A stretch of 64,000 nucleotides of DNA from Candidatus Latescibacterota bacterium (GTDB taxonomy: Bacteria > Latescibacterota > UBA2968): assembly GCA_965116885.1 (NCBI GenBank), contig OZ220741.1:3008001-3072000 (forward strand). The letters are read 5' to 3'. Shown piece by piece: positions 4,749-16,231 of the stretch. Position numbers and translations under genes: made by a program. The notes beneath the pieces were generated by a model that made no database searches, was not told the DNA's origin, and saw nothing but the letters and a program-made list of their open reading frames with translations. Numbering within the stretch: the first letter of the stretch is position 1; each line of letters starts with the position of its first letter.

Positions 4749-4803
4749 TTGGTGTCGAAGAAGAGCTGTTTGCGCTAAATCTAAGAGAAAGGAGGTGAAA
4801 GAA

Positions 4804-5034
4804 ATGACTGAGCGCATTACATCAATGCCAGCACAAGTTTCTGTGACCTGTGCTCCACTCCCTGGTCAAGAACTCGAACTGGCACATGGTGAGATGGCGA
4901 ATGCATCAGGAGGATGCCTGCTTCCAGGAGAAGATTTGTTTGAGCACGATCCATTTGAGCCTCTTGAAGATATGATCGAAGATGCGGTGGATTATATCGG
5001 AGATACGGTGAGTGAATGGTGGGCTTCCTGGTAG
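4804..5034 (+). CDS. Putative RiPP precursor A (37-aa double-glycine leader plus 39-aa acidic core)
   Basis: RBS AAGGAGGTG before ATG 4804; leader ends ELAHGEMANASGG; lies upstream of a C39 peptidase exporter. Confidence 0.8.
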   Translation: MTERITSMPAQVSVTCAPLPGQELELAHGEMANASGGCLLPGEDLFEHDPFEPLEDMIEDAVDYIGDTVSEWWASW

Positions 5035-5136
5035 CAATCGCGCTACACGCCATAAGACGCTGTTTCTGTTATTCAGGTACTGGACGAAAACCATCTTTTT
5101 TGCTGAATCTTACAATTCATTTATCCGGAGGATATT

Positions 5137-5520
5137 ATGTATAATCGCGTAACTTCAGATTCAGGCGCCGCTTTTGCTTCTTGCACGACACTGCCTATTC
5201 ATCAAACAATGCTCAATGTTAAAGAAATGGCAGATATTGATGGTCTGGGAAGTTTGGCAGATACTATTGATGCAGCGGTAGATTATATTTCGGATGTTGT
5301 TGATGGAATAGGAGATAGTGTTTCTGATTTTGTTGATTCGTTATATTTTTACCCCCAGGATGCTGAGCCTATACACGTGTCTCATCCACATATTTTCCCA
5401 GTACCCCCCCCTGATACAATGAAGATTATTACTTATGAAAGACATACCTGCGACGAGCCGGTCGTGCATTCATCTTGTGGGACTTGTATGTGCTGGGAGG
5501 TGGTAAGGCAGTGTTTTTAG
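5137..5520 (+). CDS. Putative RiPP precursor B (paralogous leader, acidic repeats, Pro/His-rich linker, Cys-rich tail)
   Basis: RBS GGAGG; first 36 aa align without gaps to precursor A; core shares AVDYI(S/G)D. Confidence 0.72.
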   Translation: MYNRVTSDSGAAFASCTTLPIHQTMLNVKEMADIDGLGSLADTIDAAVDYISDVVDGIGDSVSDFVDSLYFYPQDAEPIHVSHPHIFPVPPPDTMKIITYERHTCDEPVVHSSCGTCMCWEVVRQCF

Positions 5521-5610
5521 GTGCGCTGTGCATCAATCCGTCATTCCTGCATATGCTCCACGACGTGTGCAGGAGTGGCGGCGTTATATGAGGCAGGACG
5601 GTTGGAGAAA

Positions 5611-8600
5611 ATGAATCTTTCGCTTTTTTTCGCCAAAAACTCAGTTCGGTCACAATCTGTTCGTTTTCCCTTTGGGCGTGTTGTTTTTCAACAGGGTCAG
5701 GCGGGTGAGGCGTTTTACATTGTGCAGTCTGGACGGTTGCGGGTGATGAAGCAGGATGCAAATGGCGATTCGGACACTGTGGGCTATTTGTATGCAGGTG
5801 ATCATTTTGGCGAAGGGGCACTGTTGACCAGGCAGGGGCACCGAGCGACGGTGCGAGCGGTTGAGGATGCGGAGGTGTTGCAGGTGCCGAAGGATGAGTT
5901 TTTTAAGGCTGTGAGAAAAAGTTCTGATGTACGAGCTTACCTCGAAGAACAGATCTCCTGTATTGCGTATCGGGATTTTACGCGTTTTTTGAAAGGGGAT
6001 GTTCCAAACGAGGCGATGCGGGTGTTGTTCGCGCGGTTGAAGCGCGAGGCAGTTGAGGAGGGTGTGACCGTTGTTGAGCGAGGTCAGTTGGGGCAGCGAT
6101 TTTATTTGCTTGGCAGCGGTCAGTTGGAGACTGTGTTTGAAAATGGGGATACGGTGGTTTTGCGCGCGGGTGATTATTTTGGCGATGGTAGAGATGATGA
6201 AGCGGTCATTCGCAGTCGGCGTGATAGCGTGCTCTTTTATATAGATAAAAACGATTTTAATAAGTTAAAAGCTATGATGCCGGGATTCGAGAAGGCGTTG
6301 GGGAGAGGCCGCATATCGCGTGGAGAACAGCGAACGAATGGAGCAGGGTTTAGACAGGCACGGGATGATCGGCAAGCCCTGTCCCCATCGGGGGGGCGAG
6401 AGGCTACACCGGTTGAGCAATCTGTTATCCAAGAAGACACAGACGCCAATACGGCATCCAATTTGGTCAATATCAGAATAGACGGTGAAAAACCACAAGT
6501 GCCCACCTGGTTTCGCTTCCCGTTTTTGAAGCAACACGATCAATCGGATTGTGGCGCGGCGTGTTTGGGCATGATTTGTAAGTATTACAAGATGCCTATT
6601 GGATTGAACAGGCTGCGCGATATGTCCAATGTGTCGCGGTATGGCACGTCGATGGCGGCGTTGGCCGAGGCTGCGGAAACCATAGGTTTTGTTACCCGCG
6701 GCGTGCGAACGGGATATGAAGCTCTGATGCGAACAGAATTGCCAGCCATTCTCCACTGGGAGGGCAATCATTTTGTGGTCTTGTATCAGATAAATAAAAA
6801 GGAGGTGAAGATAGCAGATCCCGGCGTGGGCATTCGCAAGTTGTCGCGGTCAGAGTTTGAGAAGGGCTGGACAAACAGGGCACTGTTGTTGGAATACACG
6901 GATCAGGTGGCAGAAAATGAACCGTCTCAGTCTTCTTTTAAGCGGTTTTTTCCATTGATCCGGCCCTATAGGGGCATATTGATTGAGGTGCTATTAGCGT
7001 CTTTGGTGCTCAGTTTATTTGGTCTGGCATCGCCTATTTTTATGCAGACGATTGTCGATCAGGTCTTAGTGCATCACGATAAGGATTTGTTGAATTTGAT
7101 GCTGGTGGGTATGGTCGTTGTCGCGTTGTTCCAGATGGGCACATCGACGTTGCGCACCTACTTAATCGGGTATATGAGTGCGCGGTTGAGCATTGCGATG
7201 TTGTCGCGTTTTTATCGGCATTTGTTGGCGCTGTCCATGCAGTTTTTTGCTCTGAGGCGCACGGGCGATTTGACCACGCGATTTCGGGAGAATGCAACGA
7301 TTCAGCGTTTGTTGACGGGTGCGACGGTTTCTGCGGTTCTGGATTTTATCATGCTTTTTGTCTATCTGGGTCTGATGTTTTATTACAATGCCGAACTGAC
7401 GCTGGTGATGCTGATTTTTGTGCCGCTTTCTATAGGTCTCACGCTGATTTACACACCCATTTTGAAGGCTTTCAGCCAGCGCGCTTTTCTGGCGCGTGCC
7501 GAACAATCATCGGTTTTGATTGATTCGCTACACGGCATTGATGTGGTCAAAGCCGAGGCGGTTGAGCGCGCGACACGGTGGCATTGGGAAGGTAAGTTCA
7601 CAAAGGAAATGCAGATTGGCTTTCAACGGTTAAAAATGCAGATGCTGTTTGGAGGAATAGGAAGGGTGATCAATTTGCTGAGCGGTACAGTGATTTTGTG
7701 GTATGGCGCCTCATTGGTGATTGCGGGGGACCTGTCGGTTGGGCAGTTGATGGCGTTTAATGCGCTGATTGGCAATGTGATGGGACCGATTATGGGGTTG
7801 ATTGGAATATGGCCGCAGGTGCAAGAAGCGCGTATTGCACTGGATCGGTTAAATGATGTGTATGATACGCAGATGGAGGATGCGCGGCAACAGGGTCAGG
7901 GTTTGATCTTAAAGCATTTGGAAGGGCGCGTGGTTTTTGAGGGGGTATTTTTCAGATATGGTGTCGGTTCTGATGAACCTTATGTGTTGAATAATATAGA
8001 CCTGACGCTTGAGCCGGGTCAAAAAGTTGCGATTGTGGGACGTAGCGGTGCGGGCAAAACGACGCTGGTGAAACTGGTGTCTCGTTTGTTTGATCCGTCA
8101 GAAGGGCGGGTGACCTTAGATGGTATGGATGTGCGGGATGTGGATCCCCATTGGTTGCGGCGGCAGGTGGGTATGGTGATGCAGGAGCCGTTTTTGTTTT
8201 CTGGGACGATTGCTGAGAATATCGCCATTGGTCAGACAGACGCGGACATGGATCGCATTTTGGAAGTGGCAAATCTATCTTGTGTACACGATTTCGTGAG
8301 CGATATGCCTTTGGGCTATGAGACAAAGGTGGGTGAGCAGGGTGTGGGGCTGTCTGGTGGACAACGGCAGCGGATTGCGATTGCACGGGCACTGTATTGT
8401 GATCCGAAAATTTTGATTTTTGATGAGGCGACCAATGCGTTGGATACGGATTCGGAACAGGCGATTCAGGCGAATTTAGATCTGTTTTTGGATGCTCGCA
8501 CGGCGTTGATTATCGCGCATCGGTTGAGTACGGTGCGGGATGCGGATGCGATTGTGGTCTTAGATAAGGGTCATATTGTGGAGATGGGCACACACGATGA

Positions 8601-8661
8601 GTTGATGGTGCAAGAGGGGTTGTATTATCACATGTGCAGTCAACAGTTGCAGGTGGTGTGA
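5611..8661 (+). CDS. Peptidase-containing ABC transporter (two cNMP-binding-like domains, C39 peptidase, ABC membrane and ATPase domains)
   Basis: VFQQGQAGEAFYIVQSG/GDHFGE cNMP-type motifs; QHDQSDCGAAC, HWEGNHFVV, IADP (Cys-His-Asp); GRSGAGKT, LSGGQRQ, DEAT; ATG 5611 follows GGAGA. Confidence 0.95.
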   Translation: MNLSLFFAKNSVRSQSVRFPFGRVVFQQGQAGEAFYIVQSGRLRVMKQDANGDSDTVGYLYAGDHFGEGALLTRQGHRATVRAVEDAEVLQVPKDEFFKAVRKSSDVRAYLEEQISCIAYRDFTRFLKGDVPNEAMRVLFARLKREAVEEGVTVVERGQLGQRFYLLGSGQLETVFENGDTVVLRAGDYFGDGRDDEAVIRSRRDSVLFYIDKNDFNKLKAMMPGFEKALGRGRISRGEQRTNGAGFRQARDDRQALSPSGGREATPVEQSVIQEDTDANTASNLVNIRIDGEKPQVPTWFRFPFLKQHDQSDCGAACLGMICKYYKMPIGLNRLRDMSNVSRYGTSMAALAEAAETIGFVTRGVRTGYEALMRTELPAILHWEGNHFVVLYQINKKEVKIADPGVGIRKLSRSEFEKGWTNRALLLEYTDQVAENEPSQSSFKRFFPLIRPYRGILIEVLLASLVLSLFGLASPIFMQTIVDQVLVHHDKDLLNLMLVGMVVVALFQMGTSTLRTYLIGYMSARLSIAMLSRFYRHLLALSMQFFALRRTGDLTTRFRENATIQRLLTGATVSAVLDFIMLFVYLGLMFYYNAELTLVMLIFVPLSIGLTLIYTPILKAFSQRAFLARAEQSSVLIDSLHGIDVVKAEAVERATRWHWEGKFTKEMQIGFQRLKMQMLFGGIGRVINLLSGTVILWYGASLVIAGDLSVGQLMAFNALIGNVMGPIMGLIGIWPQVQEARIALDRLNDVYDTQMEDARQQGQGLILKHLEGRVVFEGVFFRYGVGSDEPYVLNNIDLTLEPGQKVAIVGRSGAGKTTLVKLVSRLFDPSEGRVTLDGMDVRDVDPHWLRRQVGMVMQEPFLFSGTIAENIAIGQTDADMDRILEVANLSCVHDFVSDMPLGYETKVGEQGVGLSGGQRQRIAIARALYCDPKILIFDEATNALDTDSEQAIQANLDLFLDARTALIIAHRLSTVRDADAIVVLDKGHIVEMGTHDELMVQEGLYYHMCSQQLQVV

Positions 8662-10044
8662 ATGGCAGAACCGCTTTTGGAGACATCTCCCGAGACAATG
8701 TCTCCACAAATTATCCAGGAACAAGATGACGCAGCAGAAGAAGTGTATGCGTTTATGGGATCTTTGCGGCCCTTTTGGGCGCGCGCATTGCTCTATATTG
8801 TGCTGCTGTTTGTGATTGTTGCCACTATCTGGGCGTGGTGGAGTAAGGTGGATGTGGTGGCATCAGCGCCTTTTCGGCTTGTGCCCCTCGGACAGGTGAA
8901 GACGATGCAGGCACAGCGAGGTGGTGAGATCGAGTTGATTGGTGTGAAAGAGGGAGATCATGTCGAGAAGGGGCAGGTGTTGTTCAAGCTGAAATCGTGG
9001 GAGACGTGGGGAGAGTTGCGGGAATGGGAGCAGGCAAAGATGGCTTTTCAAAAGGCAGAGTATGATTTCAAGACGGTGTTGCCACAAAGGGCAAGGTTAA
9101 ATCGAGAGACGATAGGAGCACTGGAGCAACGTCTCTCTGTTTTGCAGCAGTTTATGGTGGCACACCAGAATGCATTGGAAGATTATCAAAGCGATGTGGG
9201 GGATGTTGTGGGATCGAAAACCACAACATCTGACGCGGGGTTGCAAGCGCAGATTGGATTTCGACAGGCTGAGATTGATCATTTGAAAGGGGAGTTTTTG
9301 CAGCAAAAGACGCTGTTTGAGCGCGAGTTGATCAGTCGGGCGGATATGAATCGCGCACGCGTGCAGTATTTGAGTGCTCTGTCCGCACTTCCGGGACGTA
9401 TGTCAGAGATATACAAGAATGAAATGGCTGTGGCTGATCTCAAGCGGCAAATCACAGAAGCGCGTATTGCACACGGGCGCGAGGCATCGCAGATGCGACA
9501 CGCTTATGAGACTGCACAATTGCGATTAGAACAGGCGCGCAAACGCATTGATCGCACCCTGGAGGCCGAGTCGGATTTGATCTTAGCACCTGAAACGGGG
9601 ATTGTCACACAGGTGATGGTGAATGCGATGGGACAGGTGATCAGCAAGGGGCAGGCTTTGGTTGCACTGGCACCTGCTGCTGCGCCGATGGTTGCAGAAG
9701 TAATGGTGTTGAATAAAGATGTGGGCTTGCTTAAAGTTGGGCAGTTGGTCAAGCTGAAATACGATGCGTATGCCTTTCAGGATTTTGGTATCAAACGCGG
9801 ATGGCTTACACACATCTCACCCGATGCAGTGATTGATGGACATATTGGACCGATATTTAAGTGCGTTGTTGAACTGGAAGAACATACGATGCATGTGAAA
9901 GGGTATGACAAACCTCTGATGTTCGGCATGAAGGGTACGGCAGAGATGATGACAGACCGGCAATCGGTTTTGCTGATGTTGCTTTCTCCTTTGCGACAGC
10001 TTTACGAGTCGGCGAAGTACGATGTTCAGGAGGGTGCGTTGTGA
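8662..10044 (+). CDS. HlyD-family type I secretion membrane fusion protein
   Basis: Single N-terminal TM helix, VKEGDHVEKGQVL, long coiled coil, APETG, FGMKGTAE; starts immediately after the exporter stop. Confidence 0.93.
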   Translation: MAEPLLETSPETMSPQIIQEQDDAAEEVYAFMGSLRPFWARALLYIVLLFVIVATIWAWWSKVDVVASAPFRLVPLGQVKTMQAQRGGEIELIGVKEGDHVEKGQVLFKLKSWETWGELREWEQAKMAFQKAEYDFKTVLPQRARLNRETIGALEQRLSVLQQFMVAHQNALEDYQSDVGDVVGSKTTTSDAGLQAQIGFRQAEIDHLKGEFLQQKTLFERELISRADMNRARVQYLSALSALPGRMSEIYKNEMAVADLKRQITEARIAHGREASQMRHAYETAQLRLEQARKRIDRTLEAESDLILAPETGIVTQVMVNAMGQVISKGQALVALAPAAAPMVAEVMVLNKDVGLLKVGQLVKLKYDAYAFQDFGIKRGWLTHISPDAVIDGHIGPIFKCVVELEEHTMHVKGYDKPLMFGMKGTAEMMTDRQSVLLMLLSPLRQLYESAKYDVQEGAL

Positions 10045-10826
10045 TGGCAGAGGATGCTACGTTGATTCAGGTTAATGGTACCGAGGTGTCGTTGCGCCAG
10101 GTCGTGCGGCAGATGGGTGTTGCTGATAATCTGCGTTTTTTTAATGAATTTGCGCGTAGAGAATTGATCCGGCAACTTGCCCGACGTGAGGGCGTTTGTG
10201 CAGCACAGGAAGATATTCAGCGCAAGGTGAATGAATGGCGGTATAAGCATCGCCTCGAACGGGTGGAAGATACAGAGGCCTATCTTACCAAGCGGGGTAT
10301 TACGCTTCGGAATGTGGCAGAAGATGCCGAGGTGAGGCGGCTGGAGTTTTTGCTGTCTGAGAAGATCGCCGAGGGACAGGTCGAACCGTATTTCGCGCAA
10401 CACACACTTGAATTTGATGAGGCGGAGATTTGCTGGATTTTTCACGCGGATGAGGGTGTGATCGAGGAGGTTGATTTGCAGATACGAGAAGATGGTGCAG
10501 ATTTTTACGCGATGGCGCGTCGGTTTTCTCAAGATGTACGCACGCGATCAGGTAGTGGCTTTTTGGGTTGTGTGCGGCGCAAGCAGTTGCCAAAGGGGAT
10601 TGCTGCGCGCGTTTTTGCTGCTTCATCAGGTGAAATTTTGGGACCGGAAAAAGTATCGAAAGGATTTGCGCTATATTTATTGCAGAAACGCTACCCAGCA
10701 ACACTAAATGAACGGACAAAAAAGGAGATCCGCAAGCACCTGTTTAATCAATGGTTGCAACGAGAAGTACAGCGGGCAGATATACGGTATCCGATTTGGG
10801 GATCGCGAAAGCAGACGTTAAAATAG
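10041..10826 (+). CDS. PpiC/parvulin-like peptidyl-prolyl isomerase-type chaperone associated with type I secretion
   Basis: DFYAMARRFSQD...GSGFLG...GEILGP parvulin-like segment; overlaps the HlyD stop. Confidence 0.8.
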   Translation: MMAEDATLIQVNGTEVSLRQVVRQMGVADNLRFFNEFARRELIRQLARREGVCAAQEDIQRKVNEWRYKHRLERVEDTEAYLTKRGITLRNVAEDAEVRRLEFLLSEKIAEGQVEPYFAQHTLEFDEAEICWIFHADEGVIEEVDLQIREDGADFYAMARRFSQDVRTRSGSGFLGCVRRKQLPKGIAARVFAASSGEILGPEKVSKGFALYLLQKRYPATLNERTKKEIRKHLFNQWLQREVQRADIRYPIWGSRKQTLK

Positions 10827-10925: not shown

Positions 10926-13604
10926 ATGAGTCAAAAATACAAAGCTGTTTACTTTCCAGATCTCCCGGCTCCTACATCTCAACAAAAATCGTTGACCTTA
11001 GCGTTTGGCAAGAAAACACATGGATTATATGAGCATGTTAAAGATCTTTCCAGTGCTGAACTGCGCCAGTTGTTGGGTAATGATTATCGAACCCTTGTGG
11101 CTAATGCTGAAGCGCAGGACTTGCCATTAAATACCTATTGTCTTCGACAGTTAAAGCAATCAATAACTCTCATTCAGGAACAAGCACCTCAGCTTTCACT
11201 GCCAAGCATTGGTGTCGAAACAAAATTATTCGACCCAGTAAGTGTGACTTTCAAGGGCGGACGAAAAGAACCTTATGTGCGATGGTATCCTTACTTAGAG
11301 GGATATTCGACTCAATTTGTAGAATCTATCTTGGAAAATTACGCCCCAAATGCACGGGTGATTCTTGATCCCTTTGCTGGAACGGGCACCACAGCCTTCA
11401 CTGCGTCGCAACTTAACAAAACAGCATATTTTTGTGAGATAAATCCTGTATTACAATTTATTTCTACAACAAAAATACGAGTCCGACGATTAAAATTATC
11501 TCAGCGCTGCACGTTAGCTCAAGATCTCATTCAATCAAAAGAGACGCTAAAGAAACTGAAAAAATTCTCGCGAAATTACATCTTACACCAGGCATATACG
11601 CAAACCTTTGGTGATAGTCTATTTTTTGATGAGCCTGTTTATGACCTGGTTTTGCGAACGAGATCATGGATTGATGAAGTTGCTCGTGAGAATCCAATGT
11701 TAGCTGACTTAATTGTGGTTGCTACCTTATCGGCCCTCGTTCCGGCATCTCGGATGAAGCGAGCAGGTGATTTGAGATACAAAACACCTGAAGAGCTTGA
11801 ACGGCAAACAATTCCCTTAGTTGAAGGTATCTACCAGAATATTGATCTGATAGCTCATGATATTCGAAATGATGTAAATGGTTTGGAAACGGAGCCGCTG
11901 TTGATATGTGAAAATGCTCGCCTATTAGATAACCTATCACCTCTAAGTGTTGATACTGTCATAACCAGCCCGCCTTATGTAAATGGAACAAACTATTTTC
12001 GCAACACAAAGATAGAATTATGGTTCTTGAATTGCCTGAAGGAAAAGGAAGATTTGACAAAATTTCGTGCGGCATCTGTAACGGCAGGCATCAACGATGT
12101 TACCGTTGCAAAAGTGCCTGTTTCGTCTCATCCAGATGTTCAAAAGATCGTTTCAATTCTCGAAAAGGAAGCTTATGACTCCCGCATTCCCCGCATGATT
12201 ACCAGCTATTTTAGCGAGATAACAGACATATTTCGGGCAATTCGCTCTCACTTGACGCCTGAAGCGACAGTGGCGATTGATATTGGTGACTCATGCTATG
12301 CAGGTATCCACGTTCCGGTTGATCAGTTGTTATCAACGTGTTTGCAAGATCTGGGGTTTGTTCAAGAAGATTATGTGACGCTACGACAACGCAAATCCAG
12401 AGGTGGGATGTTGCTTAAACAATCACTGCTTGTTTTCAAGTATAGTCAAAAAAAGAAATACAAAAAAAAGGAGAGAATTCCTTACTGGAGTGCCGAATGG
12501 GACAGTTTCAAGGAAAACCTGCCTCATCAAAAAACGCCATTTACAAAACGCAACTGGGGGAATGCCCGGCACTCTCTATGCTCATACCCGGGAAAACTAA
12601 AGCCTGCTATCGCACATCACCTGGTGCAGACATTTGTCCCGAAAGGTGGGCGGATTTTAGATCCTTTTGCGGGGGTTGGAACAATCCCATTTGAAGCGGC
12701 ATTGGCTGATAAACTCGCCTACGGTTTTGAGATCAGTCCTGCTGCTTTTGCTATTGCCAGCGCAAAGGTTCAATGCCCCACGAAGGAAGGCTGTGAGGTA
12801 GTTATTCAAACAGTAAAAAATTTTATTAAATGTAATTCAACTACTGATCAGGAAATCACTGAAGTTAAGCATCTGGGTTTCAATGGTAAAATTGCCGAGT
12901 ATTACGAACCCCAAACCATGAGCGAAGTTATCTTGTCTCGCCGCTACTTCCAGGTTCATCCACCGGAGACTCCAGAAGATCGATTTGTGTTTGCCTCACT
13001 GCTGCATATTTTACATGGCAATCGCCCATACGCCCTCAGTCGTCGCTCTCATCCGCTTACACCTTACAAACCGACAGGAGCTTATGAATACCGCCCGCTA
13101 ATAGATCGGCTACGCGCAAAGGTTCAAAGAAGTCTGGCCGAAAATTTGCCTGTAGATTTTCGATCCGGCAAGATGTTCTTCCAAAGCGCAACAAATTGGT
13201 GGCCTCAAGAAGTTGATCAACTGGATGCCGTTATTACGTCCCCTCCCTTCTTTGACAGTACTCGATTTTATCTCGCGAACTGGTTGCGTTTGTGGTTTGC
13301 CGGTTGGTCTGCACTCGATTTTGATACCTGTCCATCTGTTTTTATTGATGAACAACAAAAGAAGAGTTTTGATGTCTATATCCCGATTTTGCGTCAGGCA
13401 AGGGAGCGACTTAAATCTGATGGCGTTGTTGTTTTGCATTTGGGGAAAAGTGCAAAATGCGATATGGCTGCTAACTTACAGAAACTTAGTAAAAGGTGGT
13501 TTCGTTCAGCCGATCTTTTCGATGAAAGTGTCGCCCACTGTGAATCCCATGGTATTCGTGATAAGGGAACGGTTACATCCCATCAGTATTTGGTCTTGTA
13601 TTAG
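10926..13604 (+). CDS. Fused double DNA amino-methyltransferase (probably N4-cytosine)
   Basis: Two motif sets: LDPFAGTGTT...ITSPPY and LDPFAGVGT...ITSPPF, joined by a Lys-rich linker. Confidence 0.88.
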   Translation: MSQKYKAVYFPDLPAPTSQQKSLTLAFGKKTHGLYEHVKDLSSAELRQLLGNDYRTLVANAEAQDLPLNTYCLRQLKQSITLIQEQAPQLSLPSIGVETKLFDPVSVTFKGGRKEPYVRWYPYLEGYSTQFVESILENYAPNARVILDPFAGTGTTAFTASQLNKTAYFCEINPVLQFISTTKIRVRRLKLSQRCTLAQDLIQSKETLKKLKKFSRNYILHQAYTQTFGDSLFFDEPVYDLVLRTRSWIDEVARENPMLADLIVVATLSALVPASRMKRAGDLRYKTPEELERQTIPLVEGIYQNIDLIAHDIRNDVNGLETEPLLICENARLLDNLSPLSVDTVITSPPYVNGTNYFRNTKIELWFLNCLKEKEDLTKFRAASVTAGINDVTVAKVPVSSHPDVQKIVSILEKEAYDSRIPRMITSYFSEITDIFRAIRSHLTPEATVAIDIGDSCYAGIHVPVDQLLSTCLQDLGFVQEDYVTLRQRKSRGGMLLKQSLLVFKYSQKKKYKKKERIPYWSAEWDSFKENLPHQKTPFTKRNWGNARHSLCSYPGKLKPAIAHHLVQTFVPKGGRILDPFAGVGTIPFEAALADKLAYGFEISPAAFAIASAKVQCPTKEGCEVVIQTVKNFIKCNSTTDQEITEVKHLGFNGKIAEYYEPQTMSEVILSRRYFQVHPPETPEDRFVFASLLHILHGNRPYALSRRSHPLTPYKPTGAYEYRPLIDRLRAKVQRSLAENLPVDFRSGKMFFQSATNWWPQEVDQLDAVITSPPFFDSTRFYLANWLRLWFAGWSALDFDTCPSVFIDEQQKKSFDVYIPILRQARERLKSDGVVVLHLGKSAKCDMAANLQKLSKRWFRSADLFDESVAHCESHGIRDKGTVTSHQYLVLY

Positions 13605-13608
13605 CGCC

Positions 13609-14628
13609 CTACTTCTGATGTAGTACTCGCTGATACTCTTGATCGGCTCGCTGAATCCATGCGGGTGAAATAGTCGTTGAATACTTAAAAAAGTCAAAAT
13701 TTTCATTCTTTAAAATCTGATTGCGTAGCTTGATAATTTCTCTCATATAGGCTGCATATTTTGTCAAAAGATGATCAACCTGTTCAGCGGTCTTGAGGCG
13801 TTCAATGGCTTCGGGGTTATAGTAAGCTGATCCAGCGAGTCTCTCGTATTGAATACCTGTCAGAATTGAGAGTTCTCTTAACTCGTTATCCGAGTAGTAC
13901 TCTGAAGGCCATTTGTCCGATTTCTCTCCATTATGTTCTCGACATAGCAGCGTCGCATTTTCAGTTGTCAGAGGCCATAAAAAAACAGCGGGAAGTGTGT
14001 GATCAAGCGGACGTTCTTTGGCATCAGCTACTTTTCGCAGGTCTTTTCGGCACTTAAAACAACGATAGCCAAAATGCTTATAGACGGCTTCGCTGTCAAT
14101 TTTTTTAGTTGCAGATAGATCGAGATACATCCGTCGCTTTTGCGCTGCTTCGCGATGTTGATCCGGCAACCGGGTTTGATTTTTTATAGCATTGTAAAAT
14201 TTTTTGCACAGACTACACTCGCCCTGGCGACCTGACTTTCGAGCGCTGTGTCGATCAAACATATGAAGTGGTTTAATCGTATTGCAGAGAATACAAAACT
14301 TATACTCTTGCGCTTCCTCAATATAGTCATCGTGCGGAATTGTAAACCGGCCTTCTTCAATAATGGATTTTGTTCTCCCATCTAACAGTTTGTGCAGTTC
14401 GTACTCAAAAAATAGAGTCTCGTCACCTGATCGAATGGCTGTCTCACAAATTGGACAGGTGAGTTCGAAATCATCGCCAATCTCATCTTTACGGATAAAG
14501 ATAAATTCCCTACACTCACTATTCAAACACTGGAAGCCTTTGAAGACAACATCTCCCATTCCCCGGACGTGATCTGCACGAATCTGATTAATTTTAGCGA
14601 CTCTTGTGTACGGCTTGCGTCTCGCCAT
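13609..14628 (-). CDS. HNH endonuclease with several Zn-binding Cys pairs; probable restriction endonuclease
   Basis: CLNSEC, CPIC, CILC, CSLC, CFKC, then LDHTLP...ENATLLCREHNGEK; convergent with the methyltransferase. Confidence 0.8.
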   Translation of the reverse strand: MARRKPYTRVAKINQIRADHVRGMGDVVFKGFQCLNSECREFIFIRKDEIGDDFELTCPICETAIRSGDETLFFEYELHKLLDGRTKSIIEEGRFTIPHDDYIEEAQEYKFCILCNTIKPLHMFDRHSARKSGRQGECSLCKKFYNAIKNQTRLPDQHREAAQKRRMYLDLSATKKIDSEAVYKHFGYRCFKCRKDLRKVADAKERPLDHTLPAVFLWPLTTENATLLCREHNGEKSDKWPSEYYSDNELRELSILTGIQYERLAGSAYYNPEAIERLKTAEQVDHLLTKYAAYMREIIKLRNQILKNENFDFFKYSTTISPAWIQRADQEYQRVLHQK

Positions 14629-14890
14629 TTTAATTTCCTTATCTTAGTGATGGCCCTATATCTGAGTATAAATCCAAATCGTAAGCATTCTTCAATCGCT
14701 ACGCCGATGGCTAACGCAAAACTCCATAATCGGATAACTCTAAACGAGGGCGCAAGGACACGCTCGTAAAAGAATATGCCGCATTCGAAGTCGAAAGCAT
14801 CGCCAAACTACACAGGCCTAGAATCTCTAAGATGTCTTAGGTGCAGGTAAGCTAAGACATGCACCATTCTATACGGTATGTTGAGAATAG

Positions 14891-16231
14891 TTAGTCTGTA
14901 GAGTGAGGAATCTCGGGCTGGAAATCTTTTCCAAATAGCTTTTTATATCCGCGTGTAAATTCCTCTGTTTCTCTGAAATCCCGAAAAGCAGGCCAAGTTT
15001 GAAAACCTTCATCTGTTACTTCATCTTTTCCCATTCCACCCATGATTTGTTCTGCTACATCAAAATTTTCTAATAATACCTCACGTACAAGAAGAAATCG
15101 CGCACTTGCCGCACTCCAATCAACACTTGTGAGAAGGGCCTCCATTTTTTCCTTCTTACCACTCCATTTATAGGCCATTGCCCTATTCATAATAAAAACA
15201 CGCCTACTCAAGTCATTGGATATATGTTTATCAGGTAAGTCCATTCCATATTGGAATACAATGGCTGCGAATTCCCATCTTTCCTCTTTGAGATGATCGA
15301 ATCCCCAATCTAACAAGTGCCCATCGATAATCTCTAGTTTCTTTGGAAAGAGTCTTCGAGTGATACTTTGTGCAATGTATAATCCAAGTTCGTATACTAT
15401 TTCTACTGATCTATCAAAATATTCTTCTGATACATGTAGCTCTTCTCCCAATTTCTGATCTCCACTTAACGTGTATCCTGATTTTTTGCACGCTTCAAGA
15501 TAATGTCTATTGATAACACCACCTGAGTGTACGAATAAGTTCCGTCGTTGGACGAGTTCTGAAAGATCAGCCAATGAGGAAAATTTTTCTATTATTCCAA
15601 TTTTAAAGTGTTTGTCTAAGTAATCTAATTGTTCTAAGTGAGAATCACGAAGTAGGACGTCAATTTCCCTTTCAATAAATCGGTCTCGAATCTCATCAAT
15701 TGAGCGAGCATCTATGAATTCATCATATCTGAGCGTTTTATCACGATTTTTAAGTCTTTTCGGAAAAGTCCGATATGAAATCCTCAAAATTTCTGCCACA
15801 TGCTCATCAAGACACGATATTAGAAGAACAACAGACTGGCGACGGAACATATTTTGAGTGCGTACAATACGATTGACGATGCCGCTGAGGCGCTTTATTT
15901 TATTAATAAGTTGCCATACTTCATTGGATATTAAAATAGGAGAATTATCTGCACGTCGAAATTTAGACTCTATGACAGAAGCATTATCTGCTAATTCTTG
16001 TGAGAATTCTGCAGATTGTTGATTAAGCACTGGTACTACTGTATCAAACATTTCCCTTGCAGAATCGACATCTGTTAAAAATTTTCTTGTTGCATCGAGA
16101 AGCTCTTCATATGGTTTTTGTTGGCTCTCTTTTTCGTTTGGATCCGACTGAACTGGAGATTTCTTAGCCCGTGCTTTTTTTATGGGTGCTTTAGTCTTTG
16201 AGGTGTGCTTTGGTGCTCTGTTTTTAGCCAT
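14891..16231 (-). CDS. Hypothetical protein with HEPN-like RxxxxH motif
   Basis: AT-rich, helical-looking ORF containing ELVQRRNLFVHSGG; upstream helix VLLISCLDEHV. Confidence 0.6.
   Translation of the reverse strand: MAKNRAPKHTSKTKAPIKKARAKKSPVQSDPNEKESQQKPYEELLDATRKFLTDVDSAREMFDTVVPVLNQQSAEFSQELADNASVIESKFRRADNSPILISNEVWQLINKIKRLSGIVNRIVRTQNMFRRQSVVLLISCLDEHVAEILRISYRTFPKRLKNRDKTLRYDEFIDARSIDEIRDRFIEREIDVLLRDSHLEQLDYLDKHFKIGIIEKFSSLADLSELVQRRNLFVHSGGVINRHYLEACKKSGYTLSGDQKLGEELHVSEEYFDRSVEIVYELGLYIAQSITRRLFPKKLEIIDGHLLDWGFDHLKEERWEFAAIVFQYGMDLPDKHISNDLSRRVFIMNRAMAYKWSGKKEKMEALLTSVDWSAASARFLLVREVLLENFDVAEQIMGGMGKDEVTDEGFQTWPAFRDFRETEEFTRGYKKLFGKDFQPEIPHSTD

Follow-up and report, generated by a model that had tools for sequence, protein, structure and literature searches.

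A putative family of precursor peptides with a two-part double-glycine leader, encoded in a glycosyltransferase and transporter cassette of Latescibacterota

The C39 peptidases ComA and LahT act on double-glycine (GG) leaders with the consensus Leu at -12, Glu at -8, Leu at -7, a hydrophobic residue at -4 and Gly at -2, the side chains at -4, -7 and -12 fitting into a hydrophobic protease groove (PMC6363468). Several described systems vary this scheme. RtgAB of S. pneumoniae, a peptidase-containing ABC transporter (PCAT), requires a leader motif at -22 to -18, including Pro at -18, and relies less on the hydrophobic positions -15, -12, -7 and -4 (PMC7018657). The C39 domain of a glycocin PCAT has been shown experimentally to cut after Gly-Lys (PMC12457901). 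[quoted passage not shown] The window analysed here, which is the whole 64,000-nt stretch of contig OZ220741.1 from a Candidatus Latescibacterota bacterium, contains two neighbouring open reading frames (ORFs), A (76 aa) and B (127 aa), which lie between two glycosyltransferase (GT) genes and a PCAT gene. Below we describe the leader shared by A and B, the family that it marks and the cassette in which it is found.

The leader family and the coding status of A and B

Residues 1 to 37 of A and B align without gaps and share 12 identities (M1, R4, T6, S7, C16, L19, P20, L26, E30, M31, A32 and G36), exactly the list drawn up in a preliminary description of this DNA, which had also placed the two ORFs, both on the plus strand, correctly (Table 1). 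None of 200,000 shuffles of B with M1 held fixed reached 12 identities (mean 3.3, maximum 11). A single whole-protein comparison by BLASTP gave E=4e-07, and beyond the leader, past an indel, BLASTP and MAFFT both paired residues 59–71 of A (EDAVDYIGDTVSE) with residues 52–64 of B (SDVVDGIGDSVSD). The homology between the two proteins thus extends beyond the leader, a point missed in the preliminary description, and since the alignment continues in this way, A resembles B minus its Pro-rich and Cys-rich C-terminal part.

Homologues of both proteins were found in a collection of 5.8 billion proteins, 36 for A (E 5e-39 to 2e-10) and 16 for B (E 6e-76 to 1e-32). A profile built from the A- and B-type sequences retrieved 41 proteins at E<=0.001 from 1.84 billion cluster representatives, a second search with the family profile retrieved 107 clusters, and a leader-only hidden Markov model (HMM) applied to six-frame ORFs revealed further precursors in four related loci. 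Two of the 41, P0080 (479 aa) and the longer P0084 (757 aa), are tandem-repeat proteins which reached E values of about 1e-4 to 3e-5 through many short stretches; they were treated as spurious and left out of the counts. Within the window, the leader HMM detected no copies beyond A and B among the six-frame ORFs at E<2. In the pooled and deduplicated set, 181 of 182 distinct sequences matched the leader HMM at E<=0.001.

Among these 181 sequences, which were collected with profiles holding the columns concerned, R4 was conserved in 178, T6 in 154, S7 in 126 (with Thr in a further 53), C16 in 178, L19 in 180 and P20 in 149, and on the C-terminal side L26 in 178, E30 in 167, M31 in 175, A32 in 143 and G36 in 176. 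A smaller, earlier sequence set gave the same column picture. The positions identical between A and B are therefore the most conserved columns of the family as well. The consensus first proposed from these two leaders holds family-wide, the further homologues found with the leader profile, six-frame ORFs included, retaining its motif; the R-x-T-S and C-x-x-L-P elements, regarded earlier as additions to a GG helix, are both conserved across the family. One of these residues, C16 (window positions 4849–4851 in A and 5182–5184 in B), is a Cys in the part of the peptide expected to be discarded, and it is nevertheless retained in 178 of 181 members.

No Pfam or NCBIfam model matched A or B, and in a scan of 38 diverse members with the same two collections the matches were either related to the core or insignificant. 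With Bacteriocin_IIc (PF10439) and ComC (PF03047), neither A nor B gave a match and 3 of the 38 members gave weak ones (best E=0.05); the best member for Bacteriocin_IIc, P0103, scored 22.7 bits, below the cut-off of 27.1. DUF6861 was found on some family cores at 28.5–30.2 bits, with a cut-off of 28, and some members look like hydrophobic Gly-zipper class II peptides. The NHLP and Nif11 leader models (TIGR03793 and TIGR03798) matched neither A nor B at E<=0.01 and none of the 38 members at E<=1. The nearest language-model neighbours of A and B were clusters of class II bacteriocins, ComC and BlpC at 0.79–0.85, which we take as a lead only. The organisms named among the matches were 'Gemmatimonadetes bacterium' and 'Candidatus Latescibacteria bacterium', known here from metagenome-assembled genomes.

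The same leader fronts very different cores: the acidic SEWW type seen in A; the B type, with an acidic repeat and a Cys-rich part; a hydrophobic type with a Gly/Ala zipper; and types reading CHYEQEEE...YSSYSIW and CLLGEV...PLIIPNKMLF. The post-leader motif [DE]-x-[VIAL]-S-[EDQ] was present in 117 of 176 cores. Two members, P0021 and P0054, are chimeric: behind a B-type N-terminal box (MSAVALKNRVTT...ASCT) comes a GG helix and core of the A type, and part of the helix is duplicated at the joint, which suggests recombination between neighbouring precursor genes.

For comparison of gene sequences, 12 related loci were gathered with the A-family alignment as query, one of which (L002) ends inside the PCAT gene; all 12 are labelled as Latescibacterota or Latescibacteria. 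Length differences among their A and B genes are all in frame, and the Shine-Dalgarno sequences, rightly described earlier as strong, are conserved wherever they were compared (Table 1). The ratio of nonsynonymous to synonymous substitution rates (dN/dS), a rough figure calculated after Nei and Gojobori and pooled over non-independent pairs of short sequences, was 0.36 and 0.31 for the leaders of A and B, respectively, 0.41 for the rest of A, 1.01 for residues 38–72 of B and 1.09 for B from residue 73 to the end; for the whole genes it was 0.38 (A) and 0.85 (B), and for the flanking enzymes 0.12–0.22. Purifying selection acts on the leaders, and the post-leader part of B evolves about neutrally or faster. 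A and B are real genes. The spacer between them is conserved (84% mean column identity), and folding of this spacer gave no sign of an attenuator or regulatory RNA (z-score +0.94, with 164 of 200 shuffles folding as well).

Double-glycine helix and predicted cleavage site

Counted from a cut after residue 37, L26, E30, M31, residue 34 and G36 fall at -12, -8, -7, -4 and -2, respectively. This is the register of the ComA/LahT consensus cited above, so that the L-x3-E-M-x4-G spacing was rightly assigned to the GG helix in the preliminary description; the hydrophobic position -4 is occupied by A34 in A and I34 in B, and by Thr or Ala in 62 of 181 members. The adjoining PCAT, in turn, has a C39 domain which aligns with those of PCAT1, LahT150 and ComA (E 4e-22 to 1e-13) and in which the Q..DCGAACL, HFVV and ADPG motifs are preserved, with the Cys, His and Asp of an intact catalytic triad. 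Both the Leu-12/Glu-8/Leu-7/hydrophobic -4 pattern and a catalytic C39 transporter are thus present. The leader has a classical GG helix as its C-terminal half, and it is very probable that the family is a GG-type leader family processed by the PCAT, with A and B predicted to be cleaved after residue 37 and exported.

By the rule that Gly at -2 is followed by Gly, Ala or Ser at -1, A fits (G36-G37) whereas B departs at -1 (G36-L37). B reads G36-L37-G38, and its site had accordingly been described as either non-canonical or shifted. Of 176 family sequences, 93 have Leu at position 37, 74 have Gly and 9 some other residue. The residue following Gly-Leu is Gly, Trp or Cys, and where a B-type leader stands on another core, IDG-L is followed by Trp or Cys; P0144 has a B-type leader reading IDGG-SC in front of the same core that elsewhere follows IDGL. 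Since G38 is not conserved and a cut after residue 37 is the only one compatible with the hydrophobic register, the site of B is best regarded as a non-canonical Gly-Leu; the alternative of a cut shifted to G38, which is replaced by Trp or Cys in other B-type precursors, was not preferred.

One could also suppose that there is no leader at all, the common N-terminus being a structural part of uncleaved small paralogues, or the ORFs being non-genes with a chance similarity. Cleavage and translation of A and B are indeed predictions from sequence, and neither AlphaFold2 (AF2) nor ESMFold gave a confident fold for the peptide. Chance similarity, however, is excluded by the shuffle test, and non-coding status is contradicted by the in-frame conservation, the ribosome-binding sites and leader dN/dS values well below 1; the register of the GG helix, the abutting PCAT with its intact C39 triad and the occurrence of one leader on unrelated cores are hallmarks of a cleaved leader. 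We regard this supposition as very improbable.

Cassette context and reading of the N-terminal box

The genes for the GT28-like protein, the GT4 protein, an A-type precursor, between one and three additional precursors and the exporter with cyclic-nucleotide-binding (cNMP-binding), C39 and ABC domains are kept in all 12 related loci, and those for the HlyD-family and PpiC-like proteins in all 11 untruncated ones. GT4 is 87–92% identical across the 12 loci. Each cassette has 2–4 precursor genes, of which the A-type gene comes first in 13/13 cassettes, the following ones varying in type and number. In the window the intergenic distances are 15, 55, 102 and 0 nt, with an overlap between the final two genes (Table 1). 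One genome (contig OZ242195.1) carries three cassettes (L005, L006 and L009) at different places, each with both GTs, which speaks for the GTs being part of the system; their enzymes are 85–96% identical to those of the window and their A-type precursors 70–79%, and the sets of extra precursors differ. In L006 (5978–8530) an additional N-terminal GT4 module is fused to the GT28-like gene, giving a protein of 850 aa with Glyco_trans_4_4, Glycos_transf_1 and Glyco_tran_28_C domains (Pfam), a fusion which hints that the GTs act in one pathway; L011 has an 846-aa ORF at the equivalent place (5969–8509), matched to it by position.

Table 1. Features of the cassette and its surroundings in the window
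Feature	Position	Strand	Remarks
guaA	up to 1709		
Terminator-like hairpin with T-run after guaA	1939..1974	+	11-pair stem, then TTTTTTTGTT; consensus match only
GT28 C-terminal-domain GT-B glycosyltransferase (MurG / macrolide-GT-like), 417 aa	2076..3329	+	Pfam Glyco_tran_28_C, 4.7e-12
GT4-family (Glycos_transf_1) glycosyltransferase, 467 aa	3345..4748	+	Pfam 1.6e-18, residues 186-343
GT4 C-terminal extension, ~104 aa	4434-4748	+	without family match
Shine-Dalgarno AAAGGAGGTG of precursor A	4788..4797	+	6 nt before ATG; conserved 13/13
Precursor A, 76 aa	4804..5034	+	leader 1-37 (4804-4914), then acidic 39-aa region ending SEWWASW
N-terminal box, leader A	4813..4863	+	R4-x-T6-S7 (-34..-31) to C16-x-x-L19-P20 (-22..-18); column counts in text
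Double-glycine helix of A	4879..4914	+	L26 (-12), E30 (-8), M31 (-7), A34 (-4), G36-G37 (-2, -1); predicted cut before C38; consensus as in PMC6363468
Post-leader acidic motif in A, shared with B	4978..5022	+	E59-W73, D-x-V-S-E-W-W
Shine-Dalgarno GGAGGAT of precursor B	5127..5133	+	conserved 9/9
Precursor B, 127 aa	5137..5520	+	leader 1-37 (5137-5247) ending G36-L37
Precursor B, post-leader			acidic repeat 38-72; Pro-rich 73-99; Cys-rich 100-127 (5 Cys)
Post-leader acidic motif in B, shared with A	5290..5334	+	S52-V66, D-x-V-S-D-F-V
Peptidase-containing ABC transporter (PCAT)	5521..8661	+	two cNMP-binding domains, C39, ABC membrane and ATPase domains
C39 peptidase of PCAT	6517-6897	+	residues 333-459; Peptidase_C39, 1.9e-39
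HlyD-family membrane-fusion protein (type I secretion adaptor)	8662..10044	+	11/11 loci reaching it
PrsA/SurA-like PpiC-type parvulin protein	10041..10826	+	Rotamase 6.9e-12; PrsA/SurA matches; start overlaps HlyD stop

The explanation that we favour, and consider probable with moderate confidence, is that A and B belong to a so far unnamed family of ribosomally made precursors whose leader, about 37 residues long, has two parts. Through its C39 domain, the neighbouring PCAT with cNMP-binding domains would bind the C-terminal helix and cut after residue 37 (Gly-Gly in A, the non-canonical Gly-Leu in B), with export by PCAT and HlyD, while the N-terminal half (R-34, T-32 and S-31 to C-22, L-19 and P-18) would form a second, family-specific recognition box. 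In the reading we prefer, this box recruits maturation proteins before export, namely the GT28-like and GT4 enzymes, possibly aided by the PrsA/SurA-like PpiC protein, and the recruited enzymes would modify, probably by glycosylation, the region after the cut. That the peptides are the substrates of the GTs we hold to be close to an even bet.

The position of the box bears on what reads it. To our knowledge, R-x-T-S at -34 to -31 lies outside any described PCAT contact. ProcA2.8 with N-terminal truncations of 10–30 residues is still a substrate of LahT150 (PMC6363468), which suggests that N-terminal leader regions are not generally needed by the protease. A maturation protein is favoured as the reader because the leader is long, as in modified peptides, because two or three GT modules are always present, because the PpiC-like protein is related to TIGR04500 (80.6 bits, cut-off 180, over profile positions 87–337 only), and because R-x-T-S is far from the protease. 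Docking of a GT by the box had already been put forward in the preliminary description, and a maturation enzyme rather than the PCAT as its reader is our preference, tentatively held; the box could also be read by both a maturation protein and the transporter, in different parts.

Alternatively, the box may serve transporter selectivity: the PCAT itself would read it, above all C-22-x-x-L-19-P-18, and so reserve the peptides for their own exporter among several PCATs. The peptides would then be unmodified cargo resembling class II bacteriocins or microcins, and the GTs would be concerned with envelope sugar, immunity or leader-independent glycosylation. C16, L19 and P20 fall exactly at -22, -19 and -18, matching the motif required by RtgAB, the residue at -15 is Glu or Gln, and the roughly 330 extra N-terminal residues of the PCAT, which include its two cNMP-binding domains, could offer further surface. 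No docking domain was detected on the GTs, and some cores resemble class II peptides of the unmodified Gly-zipper kind (DUF6861 above, Bacteriocin_IIc below the cut-off). A role of this kind, however, leaves R-x-T-S at -34 to -31 unexplained, as well as the two or three GT modules directly upstream in 12/12 cassettes, three copies in one genome among them, and the PpiC-like gene, whose relatives in TIGR04500 serve as partners to an enzyme that modifies peptides. RtgAB, moreover, is described by its authors as unique among PCATs in this respect (PMC7018657). We consider this alternative rather unlikely.

Several points weigh against the recruitment of GTs by the box and against the favoured explanation as a whole. 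No RiPP recognition element (RRE) or other peptide-docking domain was detected at significance on the GTs. The C-terminal extension of GT4 gave no hits at E<=10 with Pfam or in a profile search of the PDB, and Foldseek with its model returned 0 matches at E<=0.001. At position -15 (residue 23), 172 of 181 members have Gln (105) or Glu (67), not a hydrophobic residue as in canonical leaders. For Leu at -1 no precedent was found in the literature consulted, in which Gly-Lys was the sole non-canonical case met. The column counts are partly circular, since the sequences were collected with profiles containing those columns, the dN/dS values come from pooled, non-independent pairs of short sequences, and an organism name stood on 6 match rows only, so that the taxonomic range rests on few names. 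The strong acidity of A and of the first part of B (12 Asp/Glu, no Lys/Arg and 1 Cys in the 39 residues of A after the cut; 8 acidic and no basic residues in B 38–72) is unusual for membrane-active bacteriocins, which are typically cationic. Behind the cut the various core types have no invariant residue in common, and there is thus no obvious common acceptor, the Ser of D-x-V-S-E being present in 117 of 176 cores. Neither GT of the cassette is of a type known to make glycocins. The homology, the conservation over the family, the coding status, the synteny, the intact C39 triad and the register of the helix are observed here, and the place of the cut, export, any glycosylation and the protein that reads the N-terminal box are predictions from sequence.

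The AF2 model of the GT4 extension (predicted local distance difference test, pLDDT, 60.8; extension dN/dS 0.19) has four strands followed by three helices, and the RRE proteins TbiB1 and CteB appeared in its Foldseek search only at E values of about 2.2, which is a lead and not evidence. For the whole GT4, AF2 with 13 near-identical rows gave an unusable model (mean pLDDT 32.6). A complex prediction of GT4, the GT28-like protein and precursor A (960 residues, shallow alignments, no controls) scored 0.00 and 0.00, which speaks neither for nor against binding. The NCBIfam scores of the GT28-like protein for murG and MGT were far under the cut-offs, and its sequence matches in the PDB were weak.

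A bolder reading, which we think unlikely, would make these peptides a new class of glycosylated peptides whose modification is guided by the leader. Binding of the N-terminal box (R-x-T-S ... C-x-x-L-P) would fall to an RRE-like domain at the C-terminus of GT4 or to the PrsA/SurA-like partner, and a glycan would then be assembled by the two or three GT-B modules, either on the acidic D-x-V-S-E region or on the +1 Cys. Cleavage behind Gly-Gly or Gly-Leu, and export, would be the work of a PCAT gated by cyclic nucleotides. If true, no RiPP family before it would have been defined by GT-B glycosyltransferases; its C39 protease would accept Leu at P1, and it would come from a phylum without cultured members.

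A division of labour is compatible with either reading of the box: the conserved A-type peptide would be a secreted, pheromone-like signal, and the variable B and other peptides the effectors, much as in those class II bacteriocin loci which code for an induction peptide. This would fit the A-type gene leading 13/13 cassettes while the following precursor genes vary, the contrast in whole-gene dN/dS between A and B, the cNMP-binding domains on the PCAT and the AraC-type ORFs which lie just upstream of two cassettes, one of them with a receiver domain. Yet the cassette has no cognate sensor kinase or receptor, and A shares its post-leader motif with B and many other members, so that its product appears to be of the same type, only shorter; we consider such a division improbable.

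Several observations were made around the cassette. The AraC-type regulator ORFs just mentioned are at 5537–5947 in L006 (HTH_18 and HTH_AraC only) and at 5111–5917 in L011 (receiver and HTH_18 domains); at this place the window has guaA and the terminator-like hairpin, which appears to mark the upstream limit of the cassette transcription unit. The PCAT ORF of the window starts with a GTG abutting the stop codon of B, and in 8/12 loci the tblastn match begins only at query residue 9–31; an ATG at 5611, 90 nt downstream of the GTG and preceded by GGAG, is possibly the true start. A gene for an Rce1-like/CPBP membrane protease is found in front of the PCAT gene only in L006 (region 11200–14610), L009 (11562–12449) and L011 (12016–12933), which are the cassettes with Gly/Ala-rich hydrophobic cores, and the other ten cassettes have no room for it there; such proteases are common in bacteriocin clusters and often, not always, linked to immunity (PMC9298176). 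L006 also holds a DUF3267 putative zincin peptidase and, inside the cassette, an insertion sequence (12056–13245; HTH_Tnp_1 and rve integrase) beside a 110-aa Rce1-like fragment. Directly downstream of the cassette in the window (10926–16231) is an islet resembling a restriction-modification or defence locus. It encodes an 892-aa protein with two DNA-methylase regions (N6_N4_Mtase and MethyltransfD12), a 339-aa Cys-rich ORF (13609–14628, minus strand) without a Pfam match, and a 446-aa ORF (14891–16231, minus strand) with a weak HEPN RiboL-PSP match (21.3 bits, cut-off 28.4). The islet is considered variable, because among the related loci the methylase was matched in L010 alone, and there over its first 29 residues only.

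Comparison with known systems

In our literature search, which lay outside subscription journals and supplements, no published description of this leader or cassette was found, nor did we meet a described peptide class with the enzymes of this cassette, GT-B glycosyltransferases and a PrsA/SurA-like protein. At least 181 distinct precursors carry the leader, on cores that are highly diverse and evolve fast, and its place is in a fixed cassette; being uncovered by Pfam and NCBIfam, it provides a handle for mining and engineering such systems. It also makes testable the acceptance of Leu at -1 by a C39 peptidase, the identity of the -22 to -18 reader (a transporter, as in RtgAB, or an enzyme) and a leader-controlled GT-B glycosylation. 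Even without the proposed functions, the annotation of Latescibacterota genomes gains a clean new GG-leader family.

The family is close to the GG leaders of class II bacteriocins, ComC/BlpC pheromones and class II microcins, whose cleavage and export are carried out by PCATs (ComA, LahT, PCAT1), in Gram-negatives together with HlyD-type adaptors. With these it shares the register, an adjacent C39 PCAT and a following HlyD adaptor. Here, in contrast, the leaders are about 37–45 aa long with a conserved N-terminal box, Glu or Gln stands at -15, Leu stands at -1 in 93/176 and the PCAT carries two cNMP-binding domains; A and B, moreover, are matched by neither Bacteriocin_IIc nor ComC of Pfam, nor by any NCBIfam leader model.

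Glycocin GTs are SunS-like GT-A/GT2 enzymes, whereas those encoded here belong to Glyco_tran_28_C and Glycos_transf_1 (GT-B). Precursor A has one or two Cys and no nested disulfide pairs, and no thiol-disulfide oxidoreductase gene was found between 2076 and 10826. The likeness to glycocins (sublancin, glycocin F and orniglycocin) lies in the GG-type leader, the processing by a PCAT, the presence of a GT in the cluster and the tolerance at -1 seen with Gly-Lys (PMC12457901).

As in the Nif11, NHLP and prochlorosin families, one long leader precedes many unrelated cores that evolve fast, a locus has several precursors and the cleavage, predicted here, is of the GG type (PMC6363468); unlike in these, there is no match to TIGR03793 or TIGR03798, and in place of a lanthipeptide synthetase, cyclodehydratase or radical SAM enzyme, none of which is present in the cassette, GT-B enzymes and a PpiC-like protein are encoded. 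The GG peptides of the rtg system resemble the present ones in having a family-specific motif at -22 to -18 with Pro at -18 and a reduced use of the canonical hydrophobic positions (PMC7018657). In the present case, however, the phylum and the motif letters are different, R-x-T-S is added at -34 to -31, GTs and a PpiC-like protein accompany the precursors, and the function of the motif is predicted only. Finally, rosaritide-type graspetide clusters likewise have a cytoplasmic PpiC/SurA-like protein beside a PCAT and GG-leader precursors (PMC13097080), but no ATP-grasp domain is present in our cassette and its PpiC-like protein scores 80.6 against a cut-off of 180 bits, without the part that would match the N-domain of MirC. 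Judged by these features, the cassette appears to fall outside the Bacteriocin_IIc/ComC and NHLP/Nif11 families, the glycocins and the TIGR04500 graspetide system.

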